Positions 24,568 to 61,900 of a DNA stretch of 64,000 bases are shown in pieces. Position numbers and translations under genes: made by a program. Each line of letters starts with the position of its first letter. Position 1 is the stretch's first letter. Source of the stretch: Tubulanus polymorphus (taxonomy: Eukaryota; Animalia; Nemertea); assembly GCF_964204645.1 (NCBI RefSeq), contig NC_134030.1, forward strand, positions 15,314,110-15,378,109. The letters are read 5' to 3'. The notes beneath the pieces were generated by a model. That model saw only the letters and a list, made by a program, of their open reading frames with translations. It had not been told where the DNA came from and searched no databases.

Positions 24568-24760
24568 AGTAATAGGGGTAATGGGCTTTCAGATCAAAGG
24601 TCGAACGGTCGAGAAATTTTCCAAATGTGAAAATAACAATAATTTCTACTTGAATTAGTCGCGTACACACCTAATTCAAGTAGAAATTATTATTATTTTA
24701 CATTTGGAAAATTTCTCAACCTCTCAACCTTTAACCTGAAAGCCCATTACCCCTATTACT
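24568..24760. repeat. Terminal fold-back palindrome of copy A
   Basis: AGTAATAGGGGTAATGGGCTTTCAG...TTGAATTAG [about 12-nt loop] CTAATTCAAG...CTGAAAGCCCATTACCCCTATTACT. Confidence 0.95.
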
Positions 24761-29003: not shown

Positions 29004-29032
29004 TCAAATTTTAATAGAAATATGTATTATAA

Positions 29033-29386: not shown

Positions 29387-29403
29387 GAAAATATGTAAAA
29401 TAA

Positions 29404-32400: not shown

Positions 32401-32923
32401 ACCAGGATTATATAATTTAGAATCATTAGCGCAGGAAATTAATAGAAGAGCTCGGTTGAAAATCGGGGGTACTTCTGTATTTGAAATTAAATTCAATAAA
32501 ATTGATAGTACTAATAAAATAAGAATAAAGATTTCTAATGAACAACATACATTTATGGTAAACGAACCACTGGCTAAAATGTTAGGAATTAAACCGCTTA
32601 CAGTTACTGGAAACGCAGAAGGCATCTCAAATATAATACCTTTTACACACTTTTATATTTATTGCGATTTAATCGATCCTACAAAAACTTTCGAAGCAAC
32701 TAAAGAAACAATTTGTAGTTCTAGTATACTAAATATTTTACCGCTAAAAAATTTTAAACAATTTGGAACACAAATAAATTATAATTTAACAGAATGTGAT
32801 TTTAAACCTTGCATTCCTAAATTTAATAATTTTAAATTAGAAATAAGAAATCATAATGGATATTTAATTGATTTGAATAACTTTCCTGTGATATATGAAT
32901 TAGTTGTAAGATGTAGAGAGTAA
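29404..32923 (+). pseudogene. Minor capsid (penton) gene, copy A, split by a transposon
   Basis: The two halves rejoin to match 45441-46190. Confidence 0.85.
29602..32361. mobile_element. Non-autonomous DNA transposon, Chapaev-like (CAC...GTG ends, 4-bp TSD)
   Basis: TATG|CACGACGGTAC ... GTACCTTCGTG|TATG. The empty site GATTTATATGAGAAAT is present in copies B and C. Confidence 0.85.
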
Positions 32924-32939
32924 TTTTTTCATTATATAA

Positions 32940-35900
32940 ATGAATATAACTGTTGGACCGAGTATATGTGTTGGGTTTGATTTTAAACATGAGAAAAAAA
33001 TGAAATTTAACATTAATGATGTAATTATACATATTAAAAATATTGCATTTTCTAATGAAACAACATTTGAGTATGAAACAACAATAGATAAAGAAACTTT
33101 AAATGTAGAAAAGATTACTAATTTAATAAGAGAATCTTTAGGATTTTATGAATTAGATGAAGATTTTATCATAGATGATATTAAAAACATATTAACCAAA
33201 ATATATGATAATCATAAAAGTAGTAATGAAATAAATGTTGAATTAATCATCACTAAGATAACTAAATATTTTGAAGATAGTAATTTTTTTGATAAATAAA
33301 TGAGTGATAATAAGTGGATAATAACTGGATTATATAATGGAGCATTACTATCAGTTGGAACTGTTGGTTATTCAATGGTATTAAAAAAGGTATTTAAAAT
33401 GGGAAGTGTTAATGTTGATAGATTTGATATCAATGATATTTTAAAATTAACAGCAGTAACTAATCTAATTTAACAATTGATTATTTAGAAAAACAAAAAT
33501 ATATTCCTCCCATATAAATGTTTAATTATTTTACTAAATAAATGGCTTCTGCAGTTATAACTATTATAGGATCGGCAATTGTTAACGCTTTAGCATTTAC
33601 TGGGGACGGCTATTTATTTAAACATATTGATAAAAATGGTTCATTATCAGAACAAAAAAGACATAACTTAGTATTAGAGAAATACAATAAAGCAGCAGAA
33701 GAATATAGAGAAAAGAGACAAAACTATGTGGATTATATTAACAAGGAATTATATGATCAGAAGATTTCACACAGAGATTTTCAATCAGTTGATGATGCAA
33801 TGAGTTTATATAACGCGGTAACAAATAAAGAAAAATTACATCTACATAAACCTACAATATCAGATTATTATACCCCAAGTAATGAACAGAAGAAATATGA
33901 AATAATTTGGATTTTAGGGGGAACAGTTATTGTTATATTTGTTGCTTATAAATTTACTAATTAGTAATTTTTTTTGCTAAATAAATGGAAGATAAAGTTG
34001 ATAATATTGATATTATTCCTCATGATATCAGTAAAACTAAATTAAAAATATATTTAGAAAAACAAATATTAGAATTTGAAAGTGACTTAAAAGTTAAAAA
34101 GAAAAAATATTTAAAAAGTAAAATTATATATTATTTTATGATTAGTGGTTCGGTTACAATTAGTTCTGTAATAACACGTCTAGCAATATTCAGTCCATTA
34201 ACACCTTTAGCTATATCAATTGGTGTGTTAGGATTAAGTTCAAGTGTTTACCGGAATAAGTTCAAAATTAAATATAAAAAGTAATAAAGAAAAAAATTAA
34301 AACTAATATAAAAGAAATTAATAAATTAAAGAATACACTAGATTATATAATGAGTTTAAATGGTAATATTACAGTTGAAGAACAAGATAAATTATTAAAA
34401 GAATTAATAAATTATTAATTTTTTAATTGTATAAATGGCAGTTAGTTTTCCAAAAGCTTTCCAATATAATAAATCAATTAAATATAATATTCCTGCAATA
34501 GATTTCAATAAAGATATTACATATAGAAATGAAGTTTTAAATTCATAAATTGATTTATATATTTATGTTACTGAAAGTAATAATTTTCATGTAAAGATGG
34601 AAAATATATCCAATGTTTATGAAATTAATTTCAAAAATTTAAATGAGGCAAAACTATGGCTATTAAAATCTAATATGAAGTATTGGCAGAACCAATTAAA
34701 TTTTGCTGTTTATTGCGCAACAACAGGATGTGGAATTAGTTGGAATGATCATTTGAATAAACCAAGTTTACCATTGATGTTATCACTTTTTAGATTTCAT
34801 ACTTATTTTCAAATAAAATTAATATTAGATGAATTAGAATGTCCTTTACCAGGTTCAAAATATTTTAAAGAATTGAATAATAATGTTAATTTTTCTAAGT
34901 TTTATAAAATATGTAATGAATTTAATATTAATTCAAATAAAGATTTTAGAGCAGAAATTGGTACAATGGGTGGATTAGGAATATTATATACTACAGAATT
35001 TGGAAAAATAATGACAAATTCAGATATAAGAACACTAAATTGGAATAAATTACCAAAATATTATAATAATATTATACAACAACAAAATAATAATGGTTGG
35101 GTTAATTTCATTTTAGAAAATGGTGAAGGTTTTACAAAATCAGGTATACAAAGAATAAATCAATCTATTAGAACTTATTTGATATGTATTTTAGGTGCAC
35201 AAGTTGAAACAAGATCACCAATAGTTGGAAATGATAACACTTCATTCGATGAGCAGAAACAATTTAAAGTATTATTTGAAGATTCCATTCATAATGATAA
35301 AAATAGATCGATTCCAGAAAACATTGTAAGATATCAAAATTATTTAGATAAATCTCATGTAAGACTAAATTATTGTATAGGCCCTAATCCATAATAAATT
35401 ATTTCTAATGATTTAGTTTTAAAAATGGAAAATATAATTGGTTACAATAATCTAATTAAAACTGCAACAATAAATAATTCATTTGGAATAAATAATATAG
35501 ATAAAAAGATTATTACTGCTCCAAAATTAATGGAAGGTGAAAAAAATAAAAAACATATTCAATCAACAGAAACTAAAACTAAGAATATTAAATTAAATAA
35601 TGATTCTAAAATAAAAGATTACAATACTACAGAAAATATTAAAACTGATAATATTCAACATGAAATAATTAAACTAAATGATGATAATAAATCCCATGAA
35701 AATGCTAAATTAGCTTTTACTTGTATAGGAATTGTAATCGGAGGAATATTATATTTTAAATGTTAATTTTTTTATTATGTAAATGGAAGAAGGTGGAGAA
35801 GATTATGAAATTGGAGAAATGGGAAATAATAATGAAGGGTATATTGATGATGATTATAATGATGCCGAAACTAATATTGATGATGATAATTCATCAGCGC

Positions 35901-37214
35901 GTAATTCTAATTAAGCAGATAGTGGTTCTGAAGGCCCATCAACAGATGAATTTGATAGAAGAACTAGATCGAGAATAAATCCTGAAAATGAAAATCAAGG
36001 TTTATTAAAGCAAAATTTAGAATATAATGAATATATTTATAATTTCAAACATGTATTTGAAAAATCTGGATATAATATCAATGATAGAGGCGCCAGACTT
36101 TTAGTACAAGATTTAAAATATTTTGATGGTGAATATTATTATAATTTGAAAGATGATTATTATATTGATATATCTTATAAAAAACAAGACAAAATATTAG
36201 CGGAATCAACTTTGCTTAAGTTAGCTATCTAGAATTAACAGAATAAGAAATAGTAATGAAATAGAAGATGTAACACAAGAAGAAATTATCAAAAATGAAA
36301 GAGTATTTAAACAAAGAATTAATAAATTATTTGAAACAATCGATAATAATTTAGAACCAGAAACAACTTCTGGTAAACTTAAATCAAATAAAGTTCCAAT
36401 TGAAAAACTTTTACCAAATGGATTACTTGATGCAACAGATCAAGAATTAGAGGATTTAGATATATTTTCTGATAAAGCAATTAGAGAAATTATTAGTATA
36501 AGACTTGCATCTGATAAAATTGCACATGATAAAAGTATAAGAGTTTTTAAAATAAGAACTTTGGAAAAAGAATTAACTAATGCAAATAAAAAAATAGAAC
36601 AACTAAAGTCTGATTTAGATCATCAAGTAATTGATGAAATAGAATATAGGCAAAAAGAATTACGTTTAGAAAAAGAAAAAGATGATTTAGAATATAACAT
36701 AGAATTACAAAGAGAAGAAATTAAATTATTATTAAAATCATATGATTATAATATTAATAGATTAAAAGTTATTTTTAAAGAGTTAATAATAAAACCAGAT
36801 TCTGAAATATCATTGAATGATAGAATAAAATTATTATTTAAGTTAGAAGGAATAACAATTCTTTCAATTCTAACAGCTGTAACTATGTTATTCACAACAA
36901 TAGGTTTAGCAATATCAAATTCATTTAAATCTACACCTACACCCAATAAACCAGATAAACCCCCGAATGATAATAATTCTATACAAGATAAAGTTAAAGA
37001 TGGTTTAAAGAAATTAGCAAAATATTTATGGGAACTACCTAAAAAATCTGCTGCAGCATTGCCAGGAGTTATTGCATCAATTGTTGCTTTTATATTGAAA
37101 TCTGCAGGAAACATTATTAACTTTGCTGCTGAACATATTATTTTATTTTTAATTACAGTTGTAAGTGCAATTATTTTTGGGTCAGTGAATATGATATCAA
37201 AAGATATCAAGTAA
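32940..37214 (+). pseudogene. Block of six unknown, mostly membrane-protein genes, copy A (starts 32940, 33300, 33542, 33985, 34435, 35783)
   Basis: Colinear with 46207-50579. 32940 and 33542 are intact; the others are broken. Confidence 0.8.
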
Positions 37215-37244
37215 ACATAAATAATTAATTTTTTTGTTAAATAA

Positions 37245-37619
37245 ATGAGTGGGAGTTATATCAATCCTAAGAATCATAGAATATCTAATGCTATTAAAGC
37301 AGAAAGATCGCATCATATAATTACTCATAACCCTTCTAATATTAATCCTGATGAAACTTTATATGTTAGAATTCCTCGATTAACACAAAATACTTTTTAT
37401 GTTCCAAATAGTATTTATTTATCAGCCGATATAAAAGTAACCGGTAATAATAATAATTATGTTGTTGATAATGTTGGAAGATATTTGATTAAAAAATTAA
37501 CAATAAAGATTGGTCCAGAAACGGTCTTCTCATTAGATGATTATAATTTATTTATGCATTATAAAGATTTATGGTTAACTAATGAAAATAGAAATAATAT
37601 GATATTTCAAGGAATCCAA
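37245..37619 (+). pseudogene. Major capsid protein 5' fragment, copy A
   Basis: Matches 50646-51024, then homology jumps to the 52868-52960 region. Confidence 0.8.
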
Positions 37620-37731
37620 ATACATAGGTATATAATACATAGGTATATAAATGGTTATTTTATAAATTTATATTCATAGGGAAATTGAAACCTAAGTAAT
37701 AATTTTGAACCTTTATTATTCTTTAATTAAT

Positions 37732-40603
37732 AAGATGTAAGAAATTATATTAATTCATTAGATAATAAAAAAGATATAGAGATAACCGAAGCATTTAAAA
37801 GTGATATTGGCCCAGCAGCTATTGAGTTTAAATTTCATAAAGGAAAAACATTAGAAGAAAATAAAAAACATTTAGAAAATATGAAAAATATTATAAAAAT
37901 AATTACAGATGTTGAATACCCTAAAATAAGTATATCTTCTAAAGTTAAATTCATAAAATCTGAAGATAAACCAATATATAATATAAATTCTCATTCACAA
38001 CATATTATATCTAATCGTTTTAATGAAGTAAAAACTAAAATAGAAGAGAAATATTTTGAAGGATCTGGTTTAATATTTGATGAAATAATATTTATGACTT
38101 TACATGTGTATAACACAAAATATAATAAGTTAACTAAATCAAAACCAATTGATGAAAATAATGTATCATATTATAAAGAACCAGATATTGAAGCATCGAG
38201 TTATATTAAACTACCATTTAAAACTATTGCTGTAATAAATGTACAAAATGAAGTTGATAAATGTTTTCTATGGACAATTATAAGTTGCTTACATCCAACA
38301 GAAGATATTACACATACTTTTAGATTAACACATTATAAACCATTTGAAAATAATTATAAGATAGATAAGTATCCTGTTAGAATTAAAAATATCCCAAAAA
38401 TAGAAAGAGATTTAAGAATAAATGTATTTGATTTAATCAAATTGCCAAATACAAAAGGTAACAATATAAAACATTATACATTAGAACCTTTATACCTATC
38501 AAAAGATTATGATTCAAATGATGTTATAGTTATACTATATTATGAGAATCATTATATGTGGATTAAAAGAATTGATTTATTTTTTAAATCAGAAAATGAT
38601 TTTGATAATAAAATATATCTATGTAGAAAATGTTTACATAAATTCAGAACTGAGAGTGCATTATTAAATCATAAAAAATTATGTGAAAATCATGATTATT
38701 GTAAATTAGTTTTACCAAATGAAAAGGATAAAATATTAGAATTAAAAAAATATGATTACAAAAATAAAGTTCCATTTGTCATATATGGAGATTTTGAATC
38801 ATTAAATAAAGAATTAACTGATCAAGATAGAAAAGAAATATATTATAAAAGAAAGAAATTAAATTCTAATGAAAATGATTTTTCAGATGAACCACCAAAA
38901 ACAAATACAATTAAAAAGATTCATCAATCAGCTGCAGCTTTCGGGTTATATATAAAATCTGGTTATCCAGAACTAATTGAAAGTGAATATTATCATTATA
39001 GAAATGAAAATGTTATCAATCATTGTTGTGACTTATTAATTGAATATGAAATAAGATTTAGTAAATTATTGAATACAAATAAAGAAATTATAATGACAGA
39101 AGAAGATAAAGAAGCATTTGTGTTTACAGGTAAATGTTATTATTGTGAAAAGATATTTAATTATAAAGATAAACAAGAAAATTAATTTTTTAAAATTATT
39201 TGACGCCTGCGAAAAAATGTAGAATTTCTGGGGTAAGCTAATGTGGAATTGCAAATTTGAAATTGAAGTTTTAAGAAATTTGGGAAATTATGAGATTTGG
39301 CGATTGGGTAGATGATACAGGTCTTCGACTCTAGTAGTGGTTTAATTTTTTTTATTGAAAATTCTCAATAATTGGATCGTGTGGCCTAGCCAGCCGGCCC
39401 GGGCCACGGTATTGGCTGTCACTCGATATCCTAGAGTCTTGAGTCTGGGTTTAAGTAGACATTGTCATATAAAATAATATGTTTGTGTTATTCTGTATGA
39501 ACTACCCGTTTGTCATGTATGTTGTATTTTCTTATTTTAAAATTTATATTTATTGAATTTGGGAATTTTATCCCGGAATTTCAATGGAATAAGGATCAAT
39601 AAAGAATTGAATTGAATTGTCACCTAATACACATGCCATCAGAGGACGCGGAGCCGTATATGACAGCTATGCTATTATAAATTGCTAATCTCACGAAACC
39701 TGCATACCCCTAATATCGAACATATTTTCTAAAACATTATATGTTTCCTTATGTTTACACATTTTCATATCGACCACTTGTAGCCGCCGATGAAATTCAC
39801 GCCGGCCCTACACAGATCGTAGATAGCTTCGTCATTCCGCCAGCATCCCCATGTCAGGGTCTGACTTTTGAATCAGACTTCCGCATCGTGTATACATCCG
39901 CCATTTAACCGAATAATCTGATTTACTTATCATTTCTATTTATGCCTGCCGCTTCTGATATAGTCATACATCCATTACTATTACAATACGTCTTCTAATG
40001 ATATTCAATGCAATATAACATTTCGACGTTCAAATATAGGTCATTATATAATCACAGGAAGCCATTCTACATCTATGTCAATTATATTTTGCCAAGTAGC
40101 TTAATTGTGTACACATAGACCTGTGACGTTTTGCATATCGATTTACGGTTGTCGTTTGTAAAATGACGCTGAATGGCTAACATTGTTTAGGTTTCATAAT
40201 GGTAACGTTTTAAAAGGCGTCAAAAAAGTAAGAGACCATGATCATTTGAACGGAAAGTTTAGAGGCACTGCACACGAGAATTGTAACTTACAAGCTAAGA
40301 CAATTAACTTTGCACCAGTTATATTTCATAATCTATCAGGATATGATGCTCATTTATTTATCAAACAGTTATGCCATTAAATAGAAGAAATTAATAATGA
40401 AATAGAAAGATTAAATTCAAATAGATCAAAAGATAAAATACCAACTTATACATTTAAAATGTTAGCTAGAACATCTGAGAATTATATATCATTCCAATTT
40501 GGTTGCCTAAGATTTATAGATTCATATAGATTTTTAAATAGTTCATTAGATAACTTATCAAAATCATTAGTTGATGATGAATTAAAAATATTAAAGCAAC
40601 ACT
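37732..40603 (+). mobile_element. Polinton copy B, left portion (5'-truncated pPolB)
   Basis: pPolB homology restarts at AAGATGTAAGAAATTAT. Interrupted at about 39172 and at 40603. Confidence 0.9.
39172..40224 (-). mobile_element. Helentron/HINE-like insertion in pPolB of copy B
   Basis: Inserted in the A6 run of GATAAAAAAGTAAGA with no clear TSD. Asymmetric sub-TIRs TTTGACGCCT (39199) / AGGCGTCAAA (40215), stem-loop TAATTTT-TT-AAAATTA, minus-strand end CTTGTT. Confidence 0.75.
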
Positions 40604-41127
40604 AGTAATAGGGGTAATGGGCTTTCATACCAAAGGTCGAACGGTCGAGCCCATTAAAAAACAAAACATTAAAAGTAATTAAAAACTATAATATATTTTC
40701 ATAACCGCGTGCATTTTATATTAAAACTAAATATTTATTCTAAGATATCAATAATTTACAATACACAAATTCATATAATCAAATATATTCAAATAATAAT
40801 GATTATTCTATTATTCAACTGAAATGCACGCGGTTATGAAAATATATTATAGTTTTAAATTACTTTTAATGTTTTGTTATTAATGAGCTCGACCATTCAA
40901 CCTTTGATATGAAAGCCCATTACCCCTATTACTCTTAAAATATTCATATAAATGAATAACATTTAAATCATTGAACTTCTAAAATCAATTTTAATAAAAA
41001 ATTTATTATTAAAATGGAAGCAAATAAGTACTACTGTCCAACATGTAATATCAACATAGATAAATCCCAAAAAGCAAGACACAATAAAACTAAAACACAT
41101 TTAGAGAATAAATTGAAACTAGAATAT
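40604..41127 (+). repeat. Left TIR of copy C (40604-40933 self-palindromic)
   Basis: Reverse complement of 58422-58946 with a few differences. Confidence 0.96.
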
Positions 41128-44100
41128 AAAGATGATATATTAGAAACTAAATTAGATGAATTAAAGAATGCAAAAGAAACATACAAATGTGATACATGTA
41201 ATCAATCATTCAGTGATAAAAGATATTATAAAGAACATTTAAAATCTAAAAGTCATATTGGAAATATGAATAATGATATTTTAGGTGAAGATTATTTTGA
41301 TAATGATAAAGATAATAAACATAAGACAATTAAAAAATAAATTAAACAATAAAAGACCATACATGGAAGATGTAAGAAATTATATTAATTCATTAGATAA
41401 TAAAAAAGATATAGAGATAACCGAAGCATTTAAAAGTGATATTGGTCCAGCAGCTATCGAGTTTAAATTTCATAAAGGAAAAACATTAGAAGAAAATAAA
41501 AACATTTAGAAAATATGAAAAATATTATAAAAATAATTACTGATGTTGAATATCCTAAAATAAGTATATCAGTTAAAGTAAAGTTTATAAAATCTGAAGA
41601 TAAACCAATATATAATATAAATTCTCATTCACAACAAATTATTTCAAAACAACATGTAGATGATAAATTAGATAAATGTTATAATGAAGTAAAAACTAAA
41701 ATAGAAGAGAAATATTTTGAAGGATCTGGTTTAATATTTGACGAAATAATATTTATGACTTTACATGTTTATAACACAAAATATAATAAGTTAACTAAAT
41801 CAAAACCAATCGATGAAAATAATGTATCATATTATAAAGAACCAGATATTGAAGCATCGAGTTATATCAAACTACCATTTAAAACTAATGCTGTTATAAA
41901 CGTACAAAATTTTGATGATAAATGTTTTCTATGGGCTATAATAAGTTGTTTACATCCAACAGAAGATATTACACATAGTTTTAGATTAACTCATTATAAA
42001 CCATTTGAAAATAATTATAAGATAGATAAGTATCCTGTTAGAATTAAAAACATCCCAAAAATAGAAAGAGATAATAATATAAAGATTAATGTATTTGATT
42101 TAATCAAATTACCAAATACAAAAGGTAACAATATAAAACATTATACATTAGAACCTTTATATCTATCAAAAGATTATGATTCAAACGATGTTATAGATAT
42201 ACTATATTATGAGAATCATTATATGTGGATTAAACAAATCGATTTATTTTTCAAATCAGAAAATGATCACCATAAAATATATCTTTGTAGAAAATGTTTA
42301 CATAGATTCAGTAATGAAAGAACGTTATTAAATCATAAACAATTATGTGAAAATCATGATTATTGTAAATCAGTTTTACCAAATGAAAAAGATAAAATAT
42401 TAGAATTCAAAAAATATGATTACAAAAATAAAGTACCATTTGTAATATATGGAGATTTTGAATCATTAAATAAAGAATTAACTGATCAAGATAGAAAAGA
42501 TATATATTATAAAAGAAAGAAATTAAATTCTAATGAAAATGATTTTTCAGATGAACCACCAAAAACAAATACTATTAAAAAGATTCATCAATCAGCTGCA
42601 GCTTTCGGGTTATATATTAAATCTGATTATCCAGAACTAATTGAAAGTGAATATTATAATTATAGAAATGAAAATGTTATCAATCATTTTTGTGACTTAT
42701 TAATTGAATATGAAATAAAATTTAATGAAAAGTTAAATAAAAATATAGAAATTATAATGACAGAAGAAGATAAAGAAGCATTTGCGTTTGCAGATAAATG
42801 TTATTATTGTGAAAAGATATTTGATTATAAAGATAAAAAAGTAAGAGACCATGATCATTTGAATGGAAAGTTTAGAGGCGCTGCACATGAGAATTGTAAC
42901 TTACAAGCTAAGAAAATTAACTTTGTACCAGTTATATTTCATAATCTATCAGGATATGATGCACATTTATTCATCAAACAGTTATGCTATAAAATAGAAG
43001 AAATCAATAATGAAATAGAAAGATTAAATTCAAATAGATCAAAAGATAAAATACCAACTTATAAATTTAGAATGTTAGCTTAAACATCTGAGAATTATAT
43101 ATCATTCCAATTTGGTTGCCTAAGATTTATAGATTCATATAGATTTTTAAATAGTTCATTAGATAACTTATCAAAATCATTAGTTGATGATGAATTGAAA
43201 ATATTAAAGCAACACTACCCAAATAATGATGATTTTCAATTAATGAGATATAAAGGAGCAATTCCATATTCTTTCTATAAAAATCATAATGATTTTAACA
43301 TAACTGAATTATTAAAAGAACAATTCTATGATGAATTAAAAAATGAATATGTTAAAGATGAAGTCTATAATAGAACATTGAATATTTGGAATCATTTCAA
43401 AATGAAAAATCATGGGCAATTAGTAGATTTATATTTAAAATCAGATGTATTATTATTAACCGATATATTCGAAAGGTTTAGAGATGTAAACCTAAAATAT
43501 TTTAATATTGATCCTTGTCATTGTTATTCATCACCAGGATTGACATGGGATTGTGGATTAAAATTTACAGATATAAAAATGGATTTGTTAACAAATATAG
43601 ATCAATTATTATTATTTGAAAAATCTATAAGAGGAGGAGTTTCAGGTGTATTAGGTGATAGATATTTCAATGTAAATGATAATCCTGGATATAAGTTATT
43701 ATATATAGATGCAAATAATTTGTATGGTTGGGCAATGATGGAACCACAACCTTATGGAGTATTTGAATTAACTGAAGTTTTACAGAATGAAAATAATGAT
43801 AAATTTGATTGGAAGAAAAGAATTCTAGATATTGCAGATGATTCAGATACTGGTTACTTCTTTGTTGTAGATTTAGAATATCCTGAACATATTAAATTTA
43901 AATCTAGAAATCTAGCATACTGTCCCGAACATAAAACTGTAACTCATGAAGAATTATCAAATTACCAAAAAAGAATTAAACCTGAAAATCATATTCATAC
44001 AGAAAAGTTAATGGTAACTCAAGAAGATAAATATAATTATGTAGTACATTATAGAATGTTAAAGTTTTATTTGAATCAAGGAATGATTCTAAAAAAAAGT

Positions 44101-45043
44101 ACATAGATATATTTCGTTTAGTCAATCTAAGTGGTTAGAAAAATATATAGATTTTAACACCAAACAGAGAACTGAAGCTAGAACTGATTTCGAAAAAGAT
44201 TTCTTCAAGTTAATGAATAATGCATTCTATGGTAAGACTTGTGAAAATATTAGAAATAGAAATGATATTGAGTTAGTTAGTAATGGTAAAAGAATTAGAC
44301 ATTTACAAACATAGCCTAAGTTCATTGGTAACAGAATATTTGATGAAAATTTAGCCGCAGTTAAGATGAGAAGAACATCAATGAAATTTAATAAACCAAT
44401 CTATGTTGGCGCTTCAGTTTTAGAATTATCAAAATTACTAATGTATGAATTCTATTATAATGTATTACAACCACTTTTTGGAGAAAAACATATAGAAATA
44501 TTATATTTTGATACTGACAGTTACATATTAAAGATAAAAACTGATAACATAACTGATGATTTAAAAACATTAAAACATCATTTTGATTTTAGTAACCGTC
44601 CTAAAGATCATGAATTGTTTAGCAATGATAATAAAAAAGTTCCCGATAAATTCGAAGATGATTTAGGCGGTGAAGAAATGATTGAATTCATAGGTATTCG
44701 ATCTAAAATGTATTCATATAAAACTAAAGAACATGAAGCTAAAAAGTTAAAAGGAATAACCAAAAGTGTAGTAGAAAAGAATATTCATTTCAAAGATTAC
44801 ATCAATTGTATATTCAATGAAGAAGTTAGAAAACATAAAATGAGATGTTTAAGATCTGAAGATCATGAAATGTTTATTGAAGAGATAGAAAAGATAAGTC
44901 TAAACCCATTTGATGATAAAAGATATATTTTAGATGATGGAATTCATACAGTTGCTTATGGTTGCAATTCAGATGAATACTTAAAATTTAAAAGAGAAGA
45001 AACAAAAGAGAACGAGATAATGAAAAGAATTCTAACGTGTTAA
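41014..45043 (+). pseudogene. Protein-primed DNA polymerase B polyprotein, copy C (C2H2 fingers, TP-like region, vOTU-like protease, exonuclease with EndoVII-like insert, polymerase)
   Basis: CPTC..H..H fingers; KCFLWAI...ENHY; VIYGDFES; CYYC..RDHDHLNGKFRGAAHENCN; motifs A/B/C. Broken near 41335, 41500, 43081, 44095 and 44311. Confidence 0.95.
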
Positions 45044-45072
45044 TCAAATTTTAATAAAAATATGTTATTAAA

Positions 45073-45426
45073 ATGGAGAGTAAACAAGCACACAGTGAGA
45101 ACAACAAATTATTTCTAGATAGAATTAAAGATATAACAAATGTAAAATCTGTAGATCATAAATTCAAAAAGTTGACAGAATTAACAATCCATAAGAAATA
45201 TCTAATTACAAATATTGATACAGTTGCTAACAAACATGGAGATAAATTAGTTATACACTTAGAATATGAAGGATTAAAAGGAAATACATATAAATTCAGA
45301 ACATATTTACCGGATAGATTTCATAGATTATCAGGTGAAGATTTAGAAGAATTATGTTCTGGAGATTTCTATTTCGTATACAAAGGTAAGAATGAAAAAG
45401 GGCACCATGAAATAGATTTCGAATAA
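45073..45426 (+). CDS. 117-aa protein, possibly OB-fold ssDNA-binding
   Basis: Intact, conserved in three copies, directly after pPolB, beta-rich pattern. Function is inferred. Confidence 0.55.
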   Translation: MESKQAHSENNKLFLDRIKDITNVKSVDHKFKKLTELTIHKKYLITNIDTVANKHGDKLVIHLEYEGLKGNTYKFRTYLPDRFHRLSGEDLEELCSGDFYFVYKGKNEKGHHEIDFE

Positions 45427-45440
45427 AATATGTAAAATAA

Positions 45441-46190
45441 ATGGTGGAATTAAAAGAATACAGAATATTTGTTGATTCTAGAAGACTTACAAATTATAAA
45501 TCACATAATTTACTAGTACAATTAGAATTTAAGAATTGTGTTGATTTAAAGTTAGTTAATATAAGTTTATGTAATTCTTTTTACAATGTATCGGATAAAA
45601 CTTTTGAACATAGAGGGTTTATGATTTATATGAGAAATAAAGATAAATGGTTTCATATATTTTTAAAACCAGGATTATATAATTTAGAATCATTAGCGCT
45701 GGAAATTAATAGAAGAGCTCGGTTGAAAATCGGGGGCACTTCTGTATTTGAAATTAAATTTAATAAAATTGATAGTACTAATAAAATTAGAATAAAGATA
45801 TCTAATGAACAACATAAATTTATGGTAAACAAACCACTGGCTAAAATGTTAGGAATTAAACCGCTTACAGTTACTGGAAATGCAGAAGGCAGCTCAAATA
45901 TAATACCTTTTACACACTTTTATATTTATTGCAATTTAATCGAGCCTACAAAAACTTTCGAAGCAACTAAAGAAACAATTTGTAATTCTAGTATACTAAA
46001 TATTTTACCGCTAAAAAATGTTAAACAATTTGGAACTCAAATAAATTATAATTTAACAGAATGTGATTTCAAACCTTGTATTCCAAAATTTAATAATTTT
46101 AAGTTAGAAATAAGAAATCACAATGGATATTTAATTGATTTGAATAACTTTCCTGTGATATATGAATTAATTATAAGATGTAGAGAGTAA
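45441..46190 (+). CDS. Minor capsid protein (penton, single jelly-roll)
   Basis: IFVDSR..., PGLYNLESL..EIN, FYIYCNLI, LEIRNHNGYLIDLNNFPVIYELIIR pattern typical of Polinton/virophage pentons. Confidence 0.8.
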   Translation: MVELKEYRIFVDSRRLTNYKSHNLLVQLEFKNCVDLKLVNISLCNSFYNVSDKTFEHRGFMIYMRNKDKWFHIFLKPGLYNLESLALEINRRARLKIGGTSVFEIKFNKIDSTNKIRIKISNEQHKFMVNKPLAKMLGIKPLTVTGNAEGSSNIIPFTHFYIYCNLIEPTKTFEATKETICNSSILNILPLKNVKQFGTQINYNLTECDFKPCIPKFNNFKLEIRNHNGYLIDLNNFPVIYELIIRCRE

Positions 46191-46206
46191 TTTTTTCATT
46201 ATATAA

Positions 46207-46564
46207 ATGAATATAACTGTTGGACCGAGTATATGTTTTGGGTTTGATTTTAAACATGAGAAATAAATGAAATTTAACATTAATGATGTAATTACACATA
46301 TCAAAAATATTGCATTTTCTAATGAAACAACATTTGAGTATGAAACAACAATAGATAAAGAAACTTTAAATGTAGAAAAGATTACTAATTTAATTAGAGA
46401 ATCTTTAAGATTTTATGAATTAGATGAAGATTTTATCATCGATGATATTAAAAAAAATAATAATTGAAATATATACAAATGAAACTAGTAATGAAATAAA
46501 TGTTGAATTAATCATAAATAAGATAACTAAATATTTTGATGATAGTAATTTTTTGGATAAATAA
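46207..46564 (+). pseudogene. Unknown 118-aa protein (broken here; intact at 32940 and 63283)
   Basis: Comparison between copies. Confidence 0.75.
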
Positions 46565-46786
46565 ATGAGTGATAATAAGTGGATAATAACTGGATTATAT
46601 AACGGCGCATTACTATCAGTTGGAACTGTTGGTTATTCAATGGTATTAAAAAAAGTATTCAAAATGGGAAGTGTTAATGTTGATAGATTTGATATAAATG
46701 ATATTTTAAAATTAACATTAGCAGTTACTTTATCTAATTTAACTATTGATTATTTGGAAAAACAAAAATATATTCCTCCCATATAA
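46565..46786 (+). CDS. 73-aa hydrophobic protein
   Basis: Also intact at 63640; two hydrophobic stretches. Confidence 0.75.
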   Translation: MSDNKWIITGLYNGALLSVGTVGYSMVLKKVFKMGSVNVDRFDINDILKLTLAVTLSNLTIDYLEKQKYIPPI

Positions 46787-46811
46787 ATGCATAATTTTTT
46801 ATGCTAAATAA

Positions 46812-47234
46812 ATGGCTTCTGCAATTATAACTATTATAGGATCGGCAATTGTTAACGCTTTAGCATTTACTGGTGGTGGATATTTATTTAAACATATTGA
46901 TAAAAATAGTTCATTAGGAGAACAAAGAAGACATAACTTAGCGTTAGAGAAATATAATAAAGCTGCAGAAGAATATAGAGAAAAGAGACAAAACTATATG
47001 GATTACATCAATAAAGAATTATATGATCAGAAGATTTCACATAGAGATTTTCAATCAGTTGATGATGCAATGAGTTTATATAACGCGGTAACCAATAAAG
47101 AAAAATTACATCTATACAAACCTAAATTATCAGATTATTATACCCCAAGTAAAGAACAACAGAAATATGAAATAATATGGATTTTAGGTGGAACTGTTAT
47201 TGTTATATTTGTTGCTTATAAATTTACTAATTAG
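46812..47234 (+). CDS. 140-aa predicted membrane protein
   Basis: Hydrophobic N-terminus and C-terminal IIWILGGTVIVIFVAY; intact in three copies. Confidence 0.8.
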   Translation: MASAIITIIGSAIVNALAFTGGGYLFKHIDKNSSLGEQRRHNLALEKYNKAAEEYREKRQNYMDYINKELYDQKISHRDFQSVDDAMSLYNAVTNKEKLHLYKPKLSDYYTPSKEQQKYEIIWILGGTVIVIFVAYKFTN

Positions 47235-47254
47235 TAATTTTTTTTGCTAAATAA

Positions 47255-47689
47255 ATGGAAGATAAAGTTGATAGTATTGATATTATTCCTCATGATATAA
47301 ATAAAACTAAATTAAAAACATATTTAGAAAAACAAATATTAGAATTTGAAAATGACTTAAAAGTTAAAAAGAAAAAATATTTAAAAAGTAAAATTATATA
47401 TTATTTGATTATAAGTGGTTCGGTTACAATTAGTTCTGTAATAACATTTTTAGCAATATTCAGCCCATTAACACCTTTAGCTATATCAATTGGTGTGTTA
47501 GGATTAAGTTCAAGTGTTTTAACTGGTATAAGTTCAAAATTAAATATAAAAAGTAATAAAGAAAAAATTAAAACTAATATAAAAGAAATTAATAAATTAA
47601 AGAACACACTAGATTATATCATAAGTTTAAATGGTCATATAACAGTTGAAGAACAAGATAAATTATTAAAAGAATTAATAAATTATTAA
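47255..47689 (+). CDS. 144-aa predicted two-TM protein
   Basis: Central hydrophobic hairpin flanked by Lys-rich helices. Confidence 0.75.
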   Translation: MEDKVDSIDIIPHDINKTKLKTYLEKQILEFENDLKVKKKKYLKSKIIYYLIISGSVTISSVITFLAIFSPLTPLAISIGVLGLSSSVLTGISSKLNIKSNKEKIKTNIKEINKLKNTLDYIISLNGHITVEEQDKLLKELINY

Positions 47690-47705
47690 TTTTTTAATTA
47701 TATAA

Positions 47706-49094: not shown

Positions 49095-49110
49095 TTTTTT
49101 TGTTATGTAA

Positions 49111-50579: not shown

Positions 50580-50645
50580 CCATGATATCAAAAGATATCA
50601 AGTAAACCTGATCAAAAATAAATAATTAATTTTTTTGTTAAATAA

Positions 50646-51893
50646 ATGAGTGGGAGTTATATCATTCCTTCGAAGAATCATAGAATATCTAATGCTATTA
50701 AAGCAGAAAGATCACATCGTATAATTACTCATAACCCTTCAAATATTAATCCCGATGAAACTTTATACGTTAGAATCCCTCGATTAACAAAAAATACTTT
50801 TTATGTTCCAAATAGTATTTAATTATCGGCCGATATAAAAGTAATCGGTAACAATAATAATTATGTTGTTGATAATGTTGGAAGATATTTGATTAAAAAG
50901 TTAACAATAAAGATTGGTCCAGAAACAGTTTTCTCATTAGATGATTATAATTTATTTATGCATTATAAAGATTTATGGTTAACTAAAGAAAATAGAAATA
51001 ATATGATATTTCAAGGCATCCAATCAGAAAACCAAAATAAATTAAGATCAGAAGCTAATAGCGCAATATTAACTAATGCTGTAGATAAATTGATAAAAAG
51101 TATATATGGAAGCAAATATAAAATTCCATTAGACTTTGAATTGATAAATAATAATGCACCTTTATATAAATACGCAATTCAAGAAGACGTTATATTCGAG
51201 ATAACATTTGCTCCTGTAAATGAAATTGTATTATCTAGCGTTAATAAAGATATGAGTTATAAATTATCGAATATATGTTTAGAATATGACACAGTAACTG
51301 ATGAAAATATTTCAAGTATAATTCAAACTAAATACAATCAAGGATTTTCATTATTATATGATTATATTGATAAATTTAAAACTGTAACTATTAATGCAAA
51401 TGATGAAATAATTAATGAGAATATTAACTTCCCAAGAAGATCTATTAAAGGTATATTAATATTTTTTACCATTGCAACATATACTAATGGCGCAATAAAT
51501 GTTGATAATTATTATAATCCTGAAATAACAAAAGTAGAAATAACTATCGAAGGAATAGCAAATAAAATATTTTGTCAAGGAATAAGAATGATTGATCAAT
51601 GGCCAGAAATTAGAAAACATTTTATGAATGAAAAAGTGAAATCATCTGAAAATTGTAACATTAATCAAATTGATTATTATACCGGCAATAGATATGCATT
51701 ATGGTTAGATTTTAGAACAACAGAGGATAATTCATTACATGGTTCTGGAAAAAAACTACAGAACACTAAAGATGGAATACAATTATTCATGACAAAGAAT
51801 AAAGGAATCAAAAATTTTAAAATGCACATTTATATTATATCTGACGCGCAATTAAATATTGTAAATTCACAATTAGATAGTGTTATGTATTAA
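50646..51893 (+). pseudogene. Major capsid protein (double jelly-roll), one premature stop at about 50820
   Basis: About 415 codons in one frame. Beta-strand-rich pattern (LYVRIP, LIKKLTIKIG, YKIPLDFEL, ICLEYD, YALWLDFR), size and position fit. Confidence 0.75.
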
Positions 51894-51925
51894 AATTTTA
51901 ACTTTAATAAAGATATATATAATAA

Positions 51926-52756: not shown

Positions 52757-52888
52757 TAATAAAGGTTGAAAATTGTATAAACTAATAGTAAATAAAAAAG
52801 GGGGTTTTAAGTATTTAAGGTATCTAATAGGGTATCAGGTATTAGGGTATCAGGTATTAGGGTATCTAATACATAGTCATATAAATAG

Positions 52889-53500
52889 TTATTTTATAAA
52901 TTTATATTCATAGGGAAATTGTAGTCTCAGTAATAATTTTGAACCTTTATTATTCTTTAATTTATTCATTTATTCATCATGTAATTCAGTAGGTATAATT
53001 TGATTTTCTTCCAATGATTGTTGCATAGATTTTTTATATTTGTTATAAAATAAAACTAGAAATCTAATGTTTTCTCTAAAGTCTTTAACAATTGTATCAT
53101 ATTTTTGATTTAAAACCCAAGTTGTTATCCCAAAATGTCTCCCAGAGAAAGCTAAATAACATAACTCACTTTCTCTCACTTTTGAATCATGTAAATTTGC
53201 GCAATCATCTACAATGAATAATGTATTTGATCCTTTATAAGTATCAATTGCTATTTTTATACAATTATCTAAATTTTCTTTTACTGTTTTAGGATCTAAT
53301 ATAATAAACTTTTTCATCTTAACTATATCTCTATTATATGTTTTATTCATTTCATAAGTAGGACAAAATAATATTATATTATCAAAATGATTCTTATAAA
53401 TAGTTTCTAACAAGTCTAATATGAAATGTGTTTTACCACAATTGGTTACTCCAGTAACTAACATATTATGCGGTTCAAATATAAATAAATCTTTATTCAT
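52889..53500 (-). pseudogene. A32/FtsK-like genome-packaging ATPase (premature stop at 52970)
   Basis: Walker A GVTNCGKT, Walker B FIVDD, GRHFGITTWVLNQ motif. The frame continues past the stop to 52889. Confidence 0.9.
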
Positions 53501-54578
53501 TTATTCTTTTAATTTTGCTAGATAAAATCCATTCATTAAATTTATCATCGTATCCTTTATATTTAACCAAAGAATACTTTTTTCCTTTAAGAGATTTTGT
53601 TTTCAATACTTTTTCTATTTTGTATTCTATTTCATCTGGGTTTGGTACAAGTGATAATTCTTGTTCATAGAAATAACCTAATATTTCTTCATCTTTTAGA
53701 TCTTCTAATTTATAAACAAAAGGTTTAGTTAATATTATCTTTTTAATTTTAAATATTTCTTCAGTAAAATTTGGGGTATAACCTTTATAAAAGGGTTTTC
53801 TATATTTAGATATTCTTACGTGTTGTCCAATTTTTAATCTAGGTTCACCGAAAGCATGTGTAACAAACGCACCATATAAATTATTCCAAACTATTTCTGA
53901 ATTATCTTCTTTTCTAGCTTGTATAGGTTTCATATTTATAGAACTATGTTTAGAATTATTATAACCTTTCACCAAATCATCTAACACATCGATATATTTA
54001 TATGTTTCATTAGCAGTAAAATATTTCCACATTCTAGTTTTCAATGTTTTATTAAATCTTTCTATAATAGATGCTTTTTTATCTGAGTGTGTTGAAAAAT
54101 ATTTTACATCGTTATCAGATAATAGTTTTTTGAAATGTTTGTTATAAAATTCCTTACCTTCATCAAATTGTATCTTATCTGGAATAGCTTCTTTAAATAT
54201 AGATTTAAAAGCATTTGTTACTTCTATTCCAGTTTTATTTTTGATTGGAATTGACCATGCGTATCGACTGAATATGTCTATAACATTCAGTATCCAGAAA
54301 TATCCTTTGTTGTATTCTTCTAAGTTCTTCATGTCAATTAAATCTGCTTGCCATTGTTGATCGATATATGAAACCATAACTTTTCTTGTTAAATAAGTTT
54401 TATCCATTTTCTTGTGGATTTGATATGTTGGTTGATTTTGTAACCATGATTTTAATTCACTATATTTTATATTGCTATTATCAGATTTAATTTTATTCCA
54501 TAATTCTGAAACGTTAGAATATGATACTTCACTCTCTGGGTTATAATATAAATCTCTAAGATATTGTTCTTTTTTCAT
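53493..54578 (-). CDS. Retroviral-like (RVE) integrase with C-terminal chromodomain
   Basis: WQADLID, IQFDEGKEF, IIERFNKTLK (DDE triad); YKIEKVL...VKYKGYDDKFNEWI chromodomain. Confidence 0.95.
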   Translation of the reverse strand: MKKEQYLRDLYYNPESEVSYSNVSELWNKIKSDNSNIKYSELKSWLQNQPTYQIHKKMDKTYLTRKVMVSYIDQQWQADLIDMKNLEEYNKGYFWILNVIDIFSRYAWSIPIKNKTGIEVTNAFKSIFKEAIPDKIQFDEGKEFYNKHFKKLLSDNDVKYFSTHSDKKASIIERFNKTLKTRMWKYFTANETYKYIDVLDDLVKGYNNSKHSSINMKPIQARKEDNSEIVWNNLYGAFVTHAFGEPRLKIGQHVRISKYRKPFYKGYTPNFTEEIFKIKKIILTKPFVYKLEDLKDEEILGYFYEQELSLVPNPDEIEYKIEKVLKTKSLKGKKYSLVKYKGYDDKFNEWILSSKIKRINE

Positions 54579-56332: not shown

Positions 56333-56409
56333 ACAATATTAAAACAGATATATACAATCGAGATTACATTTTTGATATCTATATTACAAAGACCTTCAGT
56401 GTTATAATT

Positions 56410-57553: not shown

Positions 57554-58204
57554 TTAACATTCAACGTATTTTTCATTATGTGTTGAGTTCCATAATTCAA
57601 CAAATGTCTTTGCTTTATGCAGTTGATCTAAATATAACTGTATATCTAGTTTATTAGATTTAATTATATTTTCTTTCTTTTCAAGAGGCCTTAAATTTCT
57701 CCAACCCCAAATAAGTTTTTTATTGTATTCATCATTCATGTTAAATTTAGAAATCGGCAACACATGATCAATATGAAAGTATTCACCATAATTATCTATA
57801 TTCATTTTATCGTCGAATTGATATATTATCCATGATTTTAAGAATTCATCTGAACAACCCAATAAATTAGATAGTGTTTTTGAATGCGTTTCTTTGTTGA
57901 ATAATTGTGTTAATCTAGATCTTAAACACTGTTTCAATCTAAAATTAAGATCTGTTTGATATCTTTCTCTCATATATTCTGCCATATAATAATTATAATG
58001 TTCTATATTATCTTCTCGGTATTGTTTGGTATATAGTTTAGTGCAAGTTTTACAACAATATTGAAAACCATCTTTGCTAATCTTACGCTTACTAAATTCT
58101 GTTAATGATTTATCTAATTCACATTTAGAACACTTCTTGTAGTATATGTTTATAACGCCAGTGTTATTTGTAATATTGATAATTTGTGGTTGTTCTGGTT
58201 CCAT
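57554..58204 (-). CDS. HNH endonuclease with N-terminal Cys4 zinc ribbon
   Basis: CSKC..CKTC; FHIDHVLPISKF...NLRPLEKKENIIKSNK. Confidence 0.85.
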   Translation of the reverse strand: MEPEQPQIINITNNTGVINIYYKKCSKCELDKSLTEFSKRKISKDGFQYCCKTCTKLYTKQYREDNIEHYNYYMAEYMRERYQTDLNFRLKQCLRSRLTQLFNKETHSKTLSNLLGCSDEFLKSWIIYQFDDKMNIDNYGEYFHIDHVLPISKFNMNDEYNKKLIWGWRNLRPLEKKENIIKSNKLDIQLYLDQLHKAKTFVELWNSTHNEKYVEC

Positions 58205-58283: not shown

Positions 58284-58535
58284 TCATTCCTCGCTGCTTT
58301 TGATAAGTTGTTTCGATTCCTTGATATCAAATTCCTCAACGTATTGTTCATTATTTGGATCATTATTCCATAATTCAATAAATTTCTTTCCCTTTGTTAA
58401 CTGTTCTGAATATAACTGTAAATATTCTAGTTTCAATTTATTCTCTAAATGTGTTTTAGTTTTATTGTGTCTTGCTTTTTGGGATTTATCTATGTTGATA
58501 TTACATGTTGGACAGTAGTACTTATTTGCTTCCAT
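58284..58535 (-). CDS. TIR-borne duplicate of the pPolB N-terminal zinc finger fused to an HNH-like tail
   Basis: First 38 aa are identical to the start of the 41014 ORF. Confidence 0.65.
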   Translation of the reverse strand: MEANKYYCPTCNINIDKSQKARHNKTKTHLENKLKLEYLQLYSEQLTKGKKFIELWNNDPNNEQYVEEFDIKESKQLIKSSEE

Positions 58536-58946
58536 TTTAATACTAAATTTTTTATTAAAATTGATTTTAGAAGTTCAATGATTTAAATGTTATTCATTTA
58601 TATGAATATTGTAAGAGTAATAGGGGTAATGGGCTTTCATATCAAAGGTTGAATGGTCGAGCCCATTAAAAAACAAAACATTAAAAGTAATTAAAAACTA
58701 TAATATATTTTCATAACCGCGTGCATTTCAGTTGAATAATAGAATAATTATTATTATTTGAATATATTTGATTATATGAATTTGTGTATTGTAAATTATT
58801 GATATCTTGGAATAGATATTTAGTTTTAATATAAAATGCACGCGGTTATGAAAATATATTATAGTTTTTAATTACTTTTAATGTTTTGTTTTTTAATGGG
58901 CTCGACCGTTCGACCTTTGGTATGAAAGCCCATTACCCCTATTACT
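58422..58946 (-). repeat. Right TIR of copy C (58616-58946 self-palindromic)
   Basis: Reverse complement of the left TIR. Confidence 0.96.
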
Positions 58947-61900
58947 AACACTACCCAAATAATGATGATTTCCAATTAATGAGATATAAAGGCGCAATTC
59001 CATATTCTTTCTATAAAAATCATAATGATTTTAACATAACTGAATTATTGAAAGAACAATTCTATGATGAATTAAAAAATGAATATGTTAAGGATGAAGT
59101 ATATAATAGAACATTGAATATTTGGAATCATTTCAAAATAGAAAATCATGGACAATTAGTAGATTCATATCTAAAATCAGATGTTTTATTATTAACCGAT
59201 ATATTCGAAAGGTTTAGAGATGTAAACCTAAAATATTTCAATATTGATCCTTGTCATTGTTATTCTAGTCCAGGTTTAACATGGGATTGTGGATTAAAAT
59301 TTACAGATATAAAAATGGATTTGTTAACAAATATAGATCAATTATTATTATTTGAAAAAATCTATAAGAGGAGGAGTTTCAGGTGTATTAGGGGATAGAT
59401 ATTTCAATGTAATTGATAACCCTGCATATAAATTATTATATATAGATGCAAATAATTTGTATGGTTGGGCAATGATGGAACCACAACCTTATGGAGTATT
59501 TGAAATAAGTGAAGTTTCACAACATGAAAATAATGATAAATTTGATTGGAAGAAAAGAATCCTAGATATCGCAGATGATTCAGGTACTGGTTACTTCTTT
59601 ATTGTAGATTTTGAATATCCTGAACATATTAAATTCAAATCTAGAAATCTAGCATACTGTCCAGAACATAAAACTGTAACTCATGAAGAATTATCAAATT
59701 ATCAAAAAAGAATTAAACCCGAAAATCATATTCATACAGGAAAGTTAATGGTAACTCAAGAAGATAAATATAATTATGTAGTACATTATAGAATGTTAAA
59801 GTTTTATCTAAAACAAGGAATGATCCTAAAAAAAGTACATAGTTATATTTCATTTAGTCAATCTAAGTGGTTAGAAAAATATATAGATTTTAACACCAAA
59901 CAGGGAACTGAAGCTAAAACTGATTTTGAGAAAGATTTCTTCAAACTAATGAACAATGCATTCTATGGTAAGACTTGTGAAAATATTAGAAATAGAAATG
60001 ATATTGAGTTAGTTAGTAATGGTAAAAGGATAAGGCATTTACAATCATATCCTAAGTTTTTAGTTAACAGAATATTTGATGAAAATTTAGCTGCAGTTAA
60101 GATGAGAAGAACATCAATTAAATTTAATAAACCAATCTATGTTGGTGCTTCAGTTTTAGAATTATCAAAATTACTAATGTATGAATTCTATTATAATGTA
60201 TTACAACCACTTTTTGGAGAAAAACATTTAGAAATCTTATATTTTGATTACTGACAGTTACATATTAAAGATAAAAACTAATAACATAACAGATGATTTA
60301 TAAACATTAAAACATCATTTTGATTTCAGTAATTATCCTAAAAATCATGAATTGTTTAGCAATGATAATAAAAAAGTTCCTGGTAAATTCAAAGATGAAT
60401 TAGGTGGCGAAGAAATGATTGAATTCATTGGTATTAGATCTAAAATGTATTCATATAAAACTAAAGAACATGAAGCTAAAAAGTTAAAAGGAATAACCAA
60501 AAGTGTAGTAGAAAAGAATATTCATTTCAAAGATTACATCAATTGTATATTCAATGAAGAAGTTAGAAAACATAAGATGATATGTTTAAGATCTGAAGAT
60601 CATGAAATGTTTATTGAAGAAATTGAAAAGATAAGTCTAAACCCATTTGATGATATAAGATATATTTTAGATGATGGAATTCATACAGTTGCTTATGGTT
60701 GTAATTAAGATGAATACTTAAAATTTAAAAGAGAAGAAACAAAAGAGAACGAGATAATGAAAAGAATTCTAACGTGTTAATCAAATTTTAATAAAAATAT
60801 GTATTATAAATGGAGAGTAAACAAGCGCACAGTGAGAACAACAAATTATTTCTAGATAGAATAAAAGATACTTCAATTGTCAAATCAGTAGATTATAAAT
60901 TTAAGAAGTAAAAAGAATTAATAATCCATAAGAAATATCTTATTACAAATATTGATACAGTTACTAACAAATATGGACATAAATTAGTTACACACTTAGA
61001 ATATGAAGGATTAAAAGGAAATACATATAAATTCAGAACATATTTACCGGATAGATTTCATAGATTATCAAGTGAAGACCTAGAAGAATTATGTTCTGGT
61101 GATTTCTATTTCGTATATAAGGGTAAGAATGAAAAAGGGCACCATGAAATAGATTTCGAATAAGAAAATATGTAAAATAAATGGTAGAATTAAAAGAATA
61201 CAGAATATTTGTTGATTCTAGAAGACTTACAAATTTTAAATCACATAATTTACTAGTACAATTAGTTAGATAATTCAAGAATTGTGTTGATTTAAAATTA
61301 GTTAACATAAGTCTATGTAATTCTTTTTATAATATATCGGATAAAACTTCTGAACATAGAGGGTTTATGATTTATATGAGAAATAAAGATAAATGGTTTC
61401 ATATATTTTTAAAACCAGGATTATATAATTTAGAATCATTAGCGCAGGAAATTAATAGAAGAGCTCGGTTGAAAATCGGGGGCACTTCTGTATTTGAAAT
61501 AAAATTGATAGTACTAATAAAATTAGAATAAAGATATCTAATGAACAACATAAATTTTTGGTAAACAAACCACTGGCTAAAATGTTAGGAATTAAAGCGC
61601 TTACAGTTACTGGAAACGGAGAAGGCAGCTCAAATATAATACCTTTTACACACTTTTATATTTATTGCAATTTAATCGAGCCTTCAAAAACTTTCGAAGC
61701 AACTAAAGAAACAATTTGTAGTTCTAGTATACTAAATATTTTACCGCTAAAAAATTTTAAACAATTTGGAACACAAATAAATTATAATTTAACAGAATGT
61801 GATTTTAAACCTTGCATTCCTAAATTTAATAATTTTAAATTAGAAATAAGAAATCATAATGGATATTTAATTGATTTGAATAACTTTCCTGTGATATATG

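Follow-up and report, generated by a model that had tools for sequence, protein, structure and literature searches.

The 64,000-nucleotide stretch of Tubulanus polymorphus DNA analysed here (the window) carries three related element copies, A, B and C, which are about 89-98% alike depending on the segment compared. Copy C is a Polinton of 18,343 bp (40604-58946) bounded by a 6-bp TSD: the same hexamer lies at 40598-40603 and 58947-58952, and it is present once each at the two empty homologous sites in the window, near 27218 and 43211. The TIRs of copy C, of 524 bp (40604-41127 versus 58422-58946), are 98.3% identical. The features needed for the argument are these:

40598..40603, plus strand: left TSD of 6 bp; the target is the pPolB gene of the related copy B
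40604..40716, plus strand: outer arm of the left fold-back, the true terminus; its first ~46 bp are common with copy A
40717..40821, no strand: AT-rich spacer of 105 bp, variable among subfamilies
40822..40933, minus strand: inner arm, which repeats the terminus in inverted form and closes with an exact copy of the 24-nt end motif
40934..41127, plus strand: rest of the left TIR, non-palindromic, holding the first 38 codons of the pPolB reading frame
41014..45043, plus strand: pPolB, split into four ORFs, with zinc fingers, a TP-like domain, a vOTU, an exonuclease with an EndoVII-like insertion, and the polymerase
52970..53500, minus strand: A32-like packaging ATPase (Pfam Pox_A32, E 5.7e-12)
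53493..54578, minus strand: rve integrase with chromodomain (Pfam rve, E 1.3e-9; Chromo, E 1.8e-4)
57554..58204, minus strand: stand-alone HNH/endonuclease VII-like ORF, adjoining the right TIR (phrog_1035, E 5.3e-18)
58422..58946, minus strand: right TIR, of which 58616-58946 is the fold-back part
58947..58952, plus strand: right TSD, a hexamer match to the left TSD
24568..24760, plus strand: left end of sister copy A, a fold-back of 193 bp with arms of about 91 bp, a loop of about 12, the same 46-bp core and another interior

By the features tested (pPolB, rve integrase, packaging ATPase, long TIRs, 6-bp TSD and AG...CT ends), copy C is a Polinton/Maverick. The polymerase is matched by Pfam DNA_pol_B_2 (E 2.2e-7), and its gene is broken in the window's copies. 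The ORF at 50823..51893 on the plus strand, which has no Pfam or PHROG match, is a candidate that we take to resemble the major capsid protein. An adenovirus-like maturation protease gave no Pfam match in the 18 element ORFs scanned; it may be missing, or too decayed or diverged to be recognised. The right end encodes an 83-aa ORF (58284-58535) with the same zinc-finger N-terminus as pPolB, because the TIR includes the pPolB start.

The pPolB gene of copy B is interrupted by copy C, at a site homologous to 43211-43217 in copy C itself. Copy B thus occupies 37732-40603 and 58947-64000; it is without a left TIR. Copy A (24568-37731) is truncated and abuts copy B. Secondary insertions with short inverted ends, of about 2.8 kb in copy A (29602-32361) and 1.0 kb in copy B (39181-40221), are probably DNA transposons. 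Elsewhere in the window, an unrelated 1.25-kb foldback element (18680-19939), about 92% self-complementary with a 110-bp loop, contains a GIY-YIG-like ORF at 19012-19404 and has a partial copy at 1543-1796. Host DNA at 3624-3977 forms an imperfect 350-bp inverted repeat, whose arms hold what is presumably a tRNA B-box-like motif.

Within each TIR of copy C the terminus is duplicated in inverted form. The left arms (40604-40716 and 40822-40933) are inverted copies identical in 106 of 113 columns, on either side of the 105-bp spacer, which has a counted G+C content of about 14%; the arms of the right-end fold-back (58616-58946) are identical in 110 of 113. Since the left TIR is 524 bp long, the fold-back makes up its outer 330 bp, leaving 194 bp of ordinary TIR on the inner side. 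The initial annotation had described arms of about 113 bp around a spacer of about 105 bp at the left TIR, a like structure at 58616-58946, four terminus motifs in copy C and ends able to snap back, and each of these points holds. A 24-nt end motif occurs six times in the window with no mismatch in any of them, copy C holding four and copy A two, and not at all in 100 shuffles. Taken alone, the exact preservation of the inner 24 nt does not reach significance (~0.23 at 6% divergence). Folded as DNA, the copy C unit reaches -113.6 kcal/mol (z -27; none of 100 shuffles equally stable) and the copy A fold-back -82.3 kcal/mol (z -22.6; none of 200). At all three element ends in the window the fold-back begins at the first base of the element. 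At the left end of copy C the 3'-terminal base pairs with 40933 and points into 40934. Both copy C spacers have the same orientation (alignment score 195 in the same sense versus 25 flipped). The first ~46 bp of the terminus are likely to be the core used as origin and for integrase attachment.

Two observations go beyond the initial annotation: the fold-back at the left end of copy A and the strand polarity of the arm mismatches. The copy A arms are identical in 83 of 91 columns. Copies A and C have in common the first 46 bp and 17 bp past the inner end, and the arm interior is not common to them. From one subfamily to another the core stays the same and the interior is replaced symmetrically in the two arms, and the fold-back layout is a family trait, kept in sister lineages despite replaced interiors. 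That the structure belongs to the family, as first supposed, is confirmed by copy A's own fold-back and by further interiors in raw reads. These come from run X6, made from the same species in a separate study, of which about 12% was sampled; 14,195 reads of 150 nt were placed at 90% likeness. A joint from 40648 to 40889 is present in 33 reads and, where the letters are listed, holds a short self-complementary insert; another, from 40650 to 40896, is present in 20. Both short interiors are known as read joints alone. About 450 reads have an insertion at 40754-40758, with two loose ends that appear to be mutually reverse-complementary, which suggests that the spacer of a common subfamily contains a second hairpin nested within it. 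The reads cover the arms, the spacer and the inner junction, and the three ends differ from one another; an assembly artefact is therefore unlikely and was rejected.

Several paired positions in the arms are variable. At offset 47 (40651/40886) both outer arms of copy C differ from the read majority but just one inner arm does; at offset 104 (40708/40830) both paired positions vary in about 70% of reads; and at offset 24 copies A and C differ in both arms. These may be signs of arm-to-arm copying. At 40623, 329 reads have a variant end sequence after a partly shared flank (agreement 0.69).

Of the two ends of the fold-back, just the outer one is observed at insertion sites. In the X6 reads, 1,724 reads at the outer end have unlike flanks, indicating many insertion sites. 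At the inner end there is no TSD at 40934, the listed unlike flanks all belong to the outer end, and 40933 is not the position of any of the six loose ends with most support (the lowest of the six has 329 reads). Summed X6 depth is about 2,660 over the first 50 bp, 1,000 in the spacer, 1,800 at the inner end, 1,500 in the distal TIR and 550-810 within the element. This profile implies that an inner end usually lies before C-like TIRs, and that the unit is not an over-represented free MITE. The possibility that most members have plain TIRs, which had been named as one that would count against the structure, was therefore not borne out. The excess depth at the tip implies that some ends belong to elements not resolved here, whilst an inner-end depth that is not below that of the distal TIR makes loss of the inner arm look rare in C-like copies.

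The mismatches between the arms are polarised by strand. The window has nine distinct arm transitions; every one produces a G-T pair on the 3'-terminal strand and none does so on the other (offsets 26, 34, 38 and 47 in copy C, and 25, 27, 37, 42 and 69 in copy A, the shared offset 34 being counted once); three transversions and two indels lie outside this count. The majority variants in reads at offsets 46, 63 and 108 (n=3), judged among the variants listed and with the outer partner assumed unchanged, have the same polarity, making 12 of 12. Against an expected share of about 0.5 (0.39-0.58 across models), the two-sided p is 0.004 for 9/9 and 0.0005 for 12/12, values that assume independent sites where independence is partial (shared ancestry, CpG context). 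As a control, substitutions in the pPolB region that are private to one of the three copies (C>T 30, G>A 33, A>G 43, T>C 47) have no strand bias. The 3' strand folds 6-10 kcal/mol better than the other strand at all three ends. We infer that selection has acted on how well the 3'-terminal strand, or an outward RNA, can fold. CpG decay, being symmetric, should affect both strands and was for that reason set aside as an explanation of the polarity.

The polymerase appears to keep the equipment for protein priming. An AlphaFold model of the unbroken ORF at 41515-43083 (96-row alignment, mean pLDDT 85) places at residues 13-88 an N-terminal TP-like alpha/beta domain, with Ser71 in a Gly-flanked loop between a long helix and the last strand; this position is Ser in 86 of 90 aligned rows. 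PMC11161782, the source of the TP/vOTU criteria, places the linking residue in a matching loop position. At residues 120-244 of the model, OTU proteases take the top 10 structural ranks (best Z 7.6, rmsd 3.4, 102 aligned), and the predicted catalytic residues are conserved, Cys137 in 94 of 95 rows and His235 in 96 of 96. No solved terminal protein matched residues 13-88 structurally, and a Foldseek structure search gave no match at E 0.001 or better. The domain is thus called TP-like on its topology and conserved Ser, and the best OTU Z is below 8; on the model, pPolB retains a terminal-protein-like domain and the vOTU catalytic residues.

The EndoVII-like insertion in pPolB (Pfam Endonuclease_7, E 5e-5, 23.5 bits against a cut-off of 23.6) is common among the 120 pPolB relatives listed, and occurs in L096, which has an AGTAGT-like end without fold-back. 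As a specific partner of the fold-back it was dropped, because it is widespread among relatives. Such nuclease domains are read in PMC11161782 as homing-nuclease or intein relics.

Named relatives of the polymerase are mainly from oyster, cnidarians and insects. Among 104 related pPolB loci surveyed, 88 reach a contig end on the pPolB side, and a fold-back is present at that end in one of the 88, L028 (score 96; next best 38; copies C and A 89-90); this is no estimate of frequency, because most ends are assembly breaks and short-read contigs collapse at palindromes. L028 is a distant Polinton-like contig with a 249-bp fold-back at its start (3-251), with 77-bp arms and a tandem-repeat spacer, lying 330 bp before an unbroken 1,342-aa pPolB ORF. 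Its fold-back is unrelated in sequence to that of copy C, and none of its six mismatches has the G-T polarity (one is opposite and five are transversions). L012, L019 and L096 have AGTAGT-like contig ends without fold-back, and in L025, the closest relative (72% aa), the contig begins within the TIR at a point beyond the fold-back. The fold-back is thus neither universal nor unique among relatives. In the viral contig set, the 18-nt end motif had no matches and the integrase no relatives. A bacterial promoter scan gave results at chance level and is not relevant here.

The reading that we prefer, with a probability of roughly 40%, is that folding of the 3'-terminal strand provides a duplex origin at which protein priming can start. 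The 3' end would pair with the inner arm, either while replication proceeds by strand displacement or on a single strand released by excision. Each end would then have its own local duplex origin and would not depend on the long-range TIR-TIR panhandle that the standard model invokes (for which see the Fig. 4 legend in 10.64898/2026.07.28.741278). New strands would restart at the outer end, so that the orientation of the spacer would be kept. A nascent strand that snaps back may rejoin its template within the inner 46-bp core, giving mirror-image interiors. Folding in vivo and use of the fold as an origin are what we infer from these features. The polarity does not single out this model, because hairpin self-priming and an outward RNA hairpin predict it equally, and the L028 fold-back, without such polarity, speaks against its generality. 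Nor does protein priming need a fold-back, because the three relatives with AGTAGT-like contig ends have none.

There is a precedent for protein priming on a folded 3' end in the Streptomyces telomeres (PMC4513846). As that source describes them, typical telomeres of the Tpg/Tap kind are likewise protein-primed, with a 3' strand that folds back by complementarity between terminal and internal sequences. They differ in using unrelated proteins, in patching the ends after internal initiation and in not involving integration; the pairing is one of 13 nt among several small palindromes, compared with a stem of 91-113 bp here.

The main alternative is that the folded end primes by itself. The 3' end would fold back and prime inward, as in AAV/densovirus ITRs, and a later nick would restore the end. 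AAV/densovirus ITRs and poxvirus telomeres have a long terminal palindrome within an inverted terminal repeat, imperfectly paired; they occur in flip and flop forms and rely on Rep/NS1 nicking or covalently closed ends. The AAV ITR consists of a palindrome and then a non-palindromic part, which the TIR of copy C resembles in layout. The geometry is also exact, since the self-complementary terminus puts a 3'-OH, paired with 40933, on the internal template at 40934; the G-T polarity falls on the strand that would be primed, and two HNH/EndoVII-like nucleases are encoded. Hairpin priming of this sort has been proposed for virophages/PLVs in 10.64898/2026.07.28.741278.

In copy C, however, the TP Ser and the vOTU Cys and His are retained, no loose end lies at 40933 among the six best supported in X6, and a HUH Rep/NS1 nickase gave no match among the 18 element ORFs scanned with Pfam, HNH/EndoVII-like domains being present instead. 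AAV-type resolution inverts the palindrome, so that both forms are expected and polarity is erased, yet one polarity is kept at all three ends in the window and in the majority read alleles. Flip-compatible reads number just 10 (6 starts, one mate direction); they join the paired positions 40682 and 40856 on opposite strands, amount to less than 1% of local depth, and would be given equally by a flipped spacer, a homogenised inner arm or a library chimera. Flip/flop spacers, for which the initial annotation had proposed to look among copies, thus look rare: one orientation dominates in the integrated copies covered, with the limited power of 150-nt reads. Because the TP Ser and vOTU Cys/His are kept and flipped spacers look rare, the hairpin-primed, parvovirus- or poxvirus-like mode put forward in the initial annotation is not favoured. 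We regard self-priming as unlikely, though quite conceivable, and a scheme of resolution in a single orientation remains compatible with it. Copy C passes neither as a rolling-hairpin replicon nor as a MITE.

It is rather unlikely that the fold-back is a neutral by-product, in which one ancient snap-back template switch was spread by TIR homogenisation and later switches remodelled the interior without function. Protein-primed strand displacement could well give copy-back products, there are relatives without fold-back, the interiors vary freely, and accidental annealing is named as an alternative in 10.64898/2026.07.28.741278. The one-sided polarity (12/12) is not what such a history predicts, however; deamination of displaced strands would be expected to mark the opposite side. 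The inner-end depth of about 1,800, not below the 1,500 or so of the distal TIR, also makes loss of the inner arm look rare.

The fold-back could in theory serve excision rather than replication. The chromosomal palindrome would extrude as a cruciform, with a four-way junction at the boundary between host and element, and a junction nuclease would free the exact end. T4 EndoVII resolves cruciforms, and copy C has both the Pfam Endonuclease_7 match in pPolB (E 5e-5) and the EndoVII-like ORF adjoining the right TIR; the start of the fold-back at the first base of the element, in 3/3 ends, also fits an excision guide. But the EndoVII-like insertion is common in relatives, including L096 without fold-back, and PMC11161782 reads such domains as relics of homing nucleases or inteins. 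A 105-bp spacer should moreover hinder extrusion, and a cruciform alone does not explain the polarity, so that we consider an excision guide improbable.

More improbable again is a role in RNA, with an outward TIR transcript folding with G-U pairs into a source of small RNA or a decoy. It predicts the same polarity, and the outward sense folds 21-26 kcal/mol better as RNA, but it leaves unexplained why the arms should line up exactly with the DNA terminus, and no Rfam family came near threshold (best 32 bits against 139.7). The MIR2606 match in Rfam, far below threshold, was set aside as a generic hairpin match.

The remaining idea, a host- or Polinton-derived MITE inserted at both ends, is largely refuted and almost certainly wrong: the 330-bp unit does look like a miniature element with its own inverted ends, and its outermost 50 bp are deeper in reads (~2,660) than the distal TIR (~1,500), but the unrelated MITE with its own TSD that had been raised against the structure was not borne out, as the inner end has no TSD, no second terminus behind it and no listed spread of flanks (unlike flanks being listed at the outer end only), the inner junction is common to A and C, and the spacer depth (~1,000) is below that of the distal TIR.

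Copy C shares with canonical Polintons/Mavericks, as these are described in PMC8097293 and PMC10748475, the pPolB, rve integrase and ATPase, TIRs of several hundred bp, a 6-bp TSD, 5'-AGT...ACT-3' ends and a size within 13-25 kb. It is unlike the canonical elements of those descriptions in that its end is not an (AGT)2 or (AG)3 repeat and that each TIR holds two copies of the end. The strings 'hairpin' and 'palindrom' have no occurrences in the available text of PMC8097293, PMC8502044, PMC11131425 and PMC10748475.

Terminal palindromes as such have already been reported for the virophage/PLV group. The one paper with this feature that the literature searched yielded, a bioRxiv preprint of July 2026 (10.64898/2026.07.28.741278), describes TIR palindromes next to the TSD in Halocafeteria seosinensis virophage subtypes 1, 2, 5 and 6 and PLV subtype 4, mostly with non-pPolB replication genes, and proposes hairpin priming as a hypothesis. 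Those elements are like copy C in having palindromes within TIRs that adjoin the TSD, and rve integrases. According to the same preprint, the palindrome is of 52 nt in subtype 5 and the host is a protist, whereas copies C and A have arms of 91-113 bp, a duplication of the whole terminus and a TP/vOTU pPolB. Subfamily-variable interiors and strand-polarised mismatches are found here, and neither is reported for Halocafeteria in section 7 of that preprint. The novelty first claimed for palindromic ends therefore stands in part: palindromes and hairpin priming had already been proposed for virophages/PLVs, and what was not found in the literature searched is the fold-back on a TP/vOTU-bearing Polinton, with its replaced interiors and 3'-strand bias, though an earlier mention for Polintons is possible.

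Polinton replication and excision have so far been modelled from sequence. The published palindromes are read as an alternative to protein priming; here a palindrome lies on an element that keeps the protein-priming domains, and differs from the AAV/densovirus/poxvirus ends in the dominance of one orientation. The family has many genomic copies, and its fold-back gives a defined substrate with clear predictions (a 5' protein cap, a single orientation and folding of the 3' strand). If the preferred reading of a folded origin for protein priming is extended, the end may be a hybrid terminus, protein-primed, with an inner copy that folds on the 3' strand and also marks the boundary between host and element, from which an EndoVII-like or host junction nuclease could excise the provirus with full-length ends. 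It is unclear, according to PMC11161782, how the terminal protein is removed before integration. The hybrid terminus is quite unlikely. If true, it would explain, in a form open to testing, how integrated Polintons come to have exact free ends again, and the presence of similar fold-backs, such as that of L028, would make this a recurrent solution.
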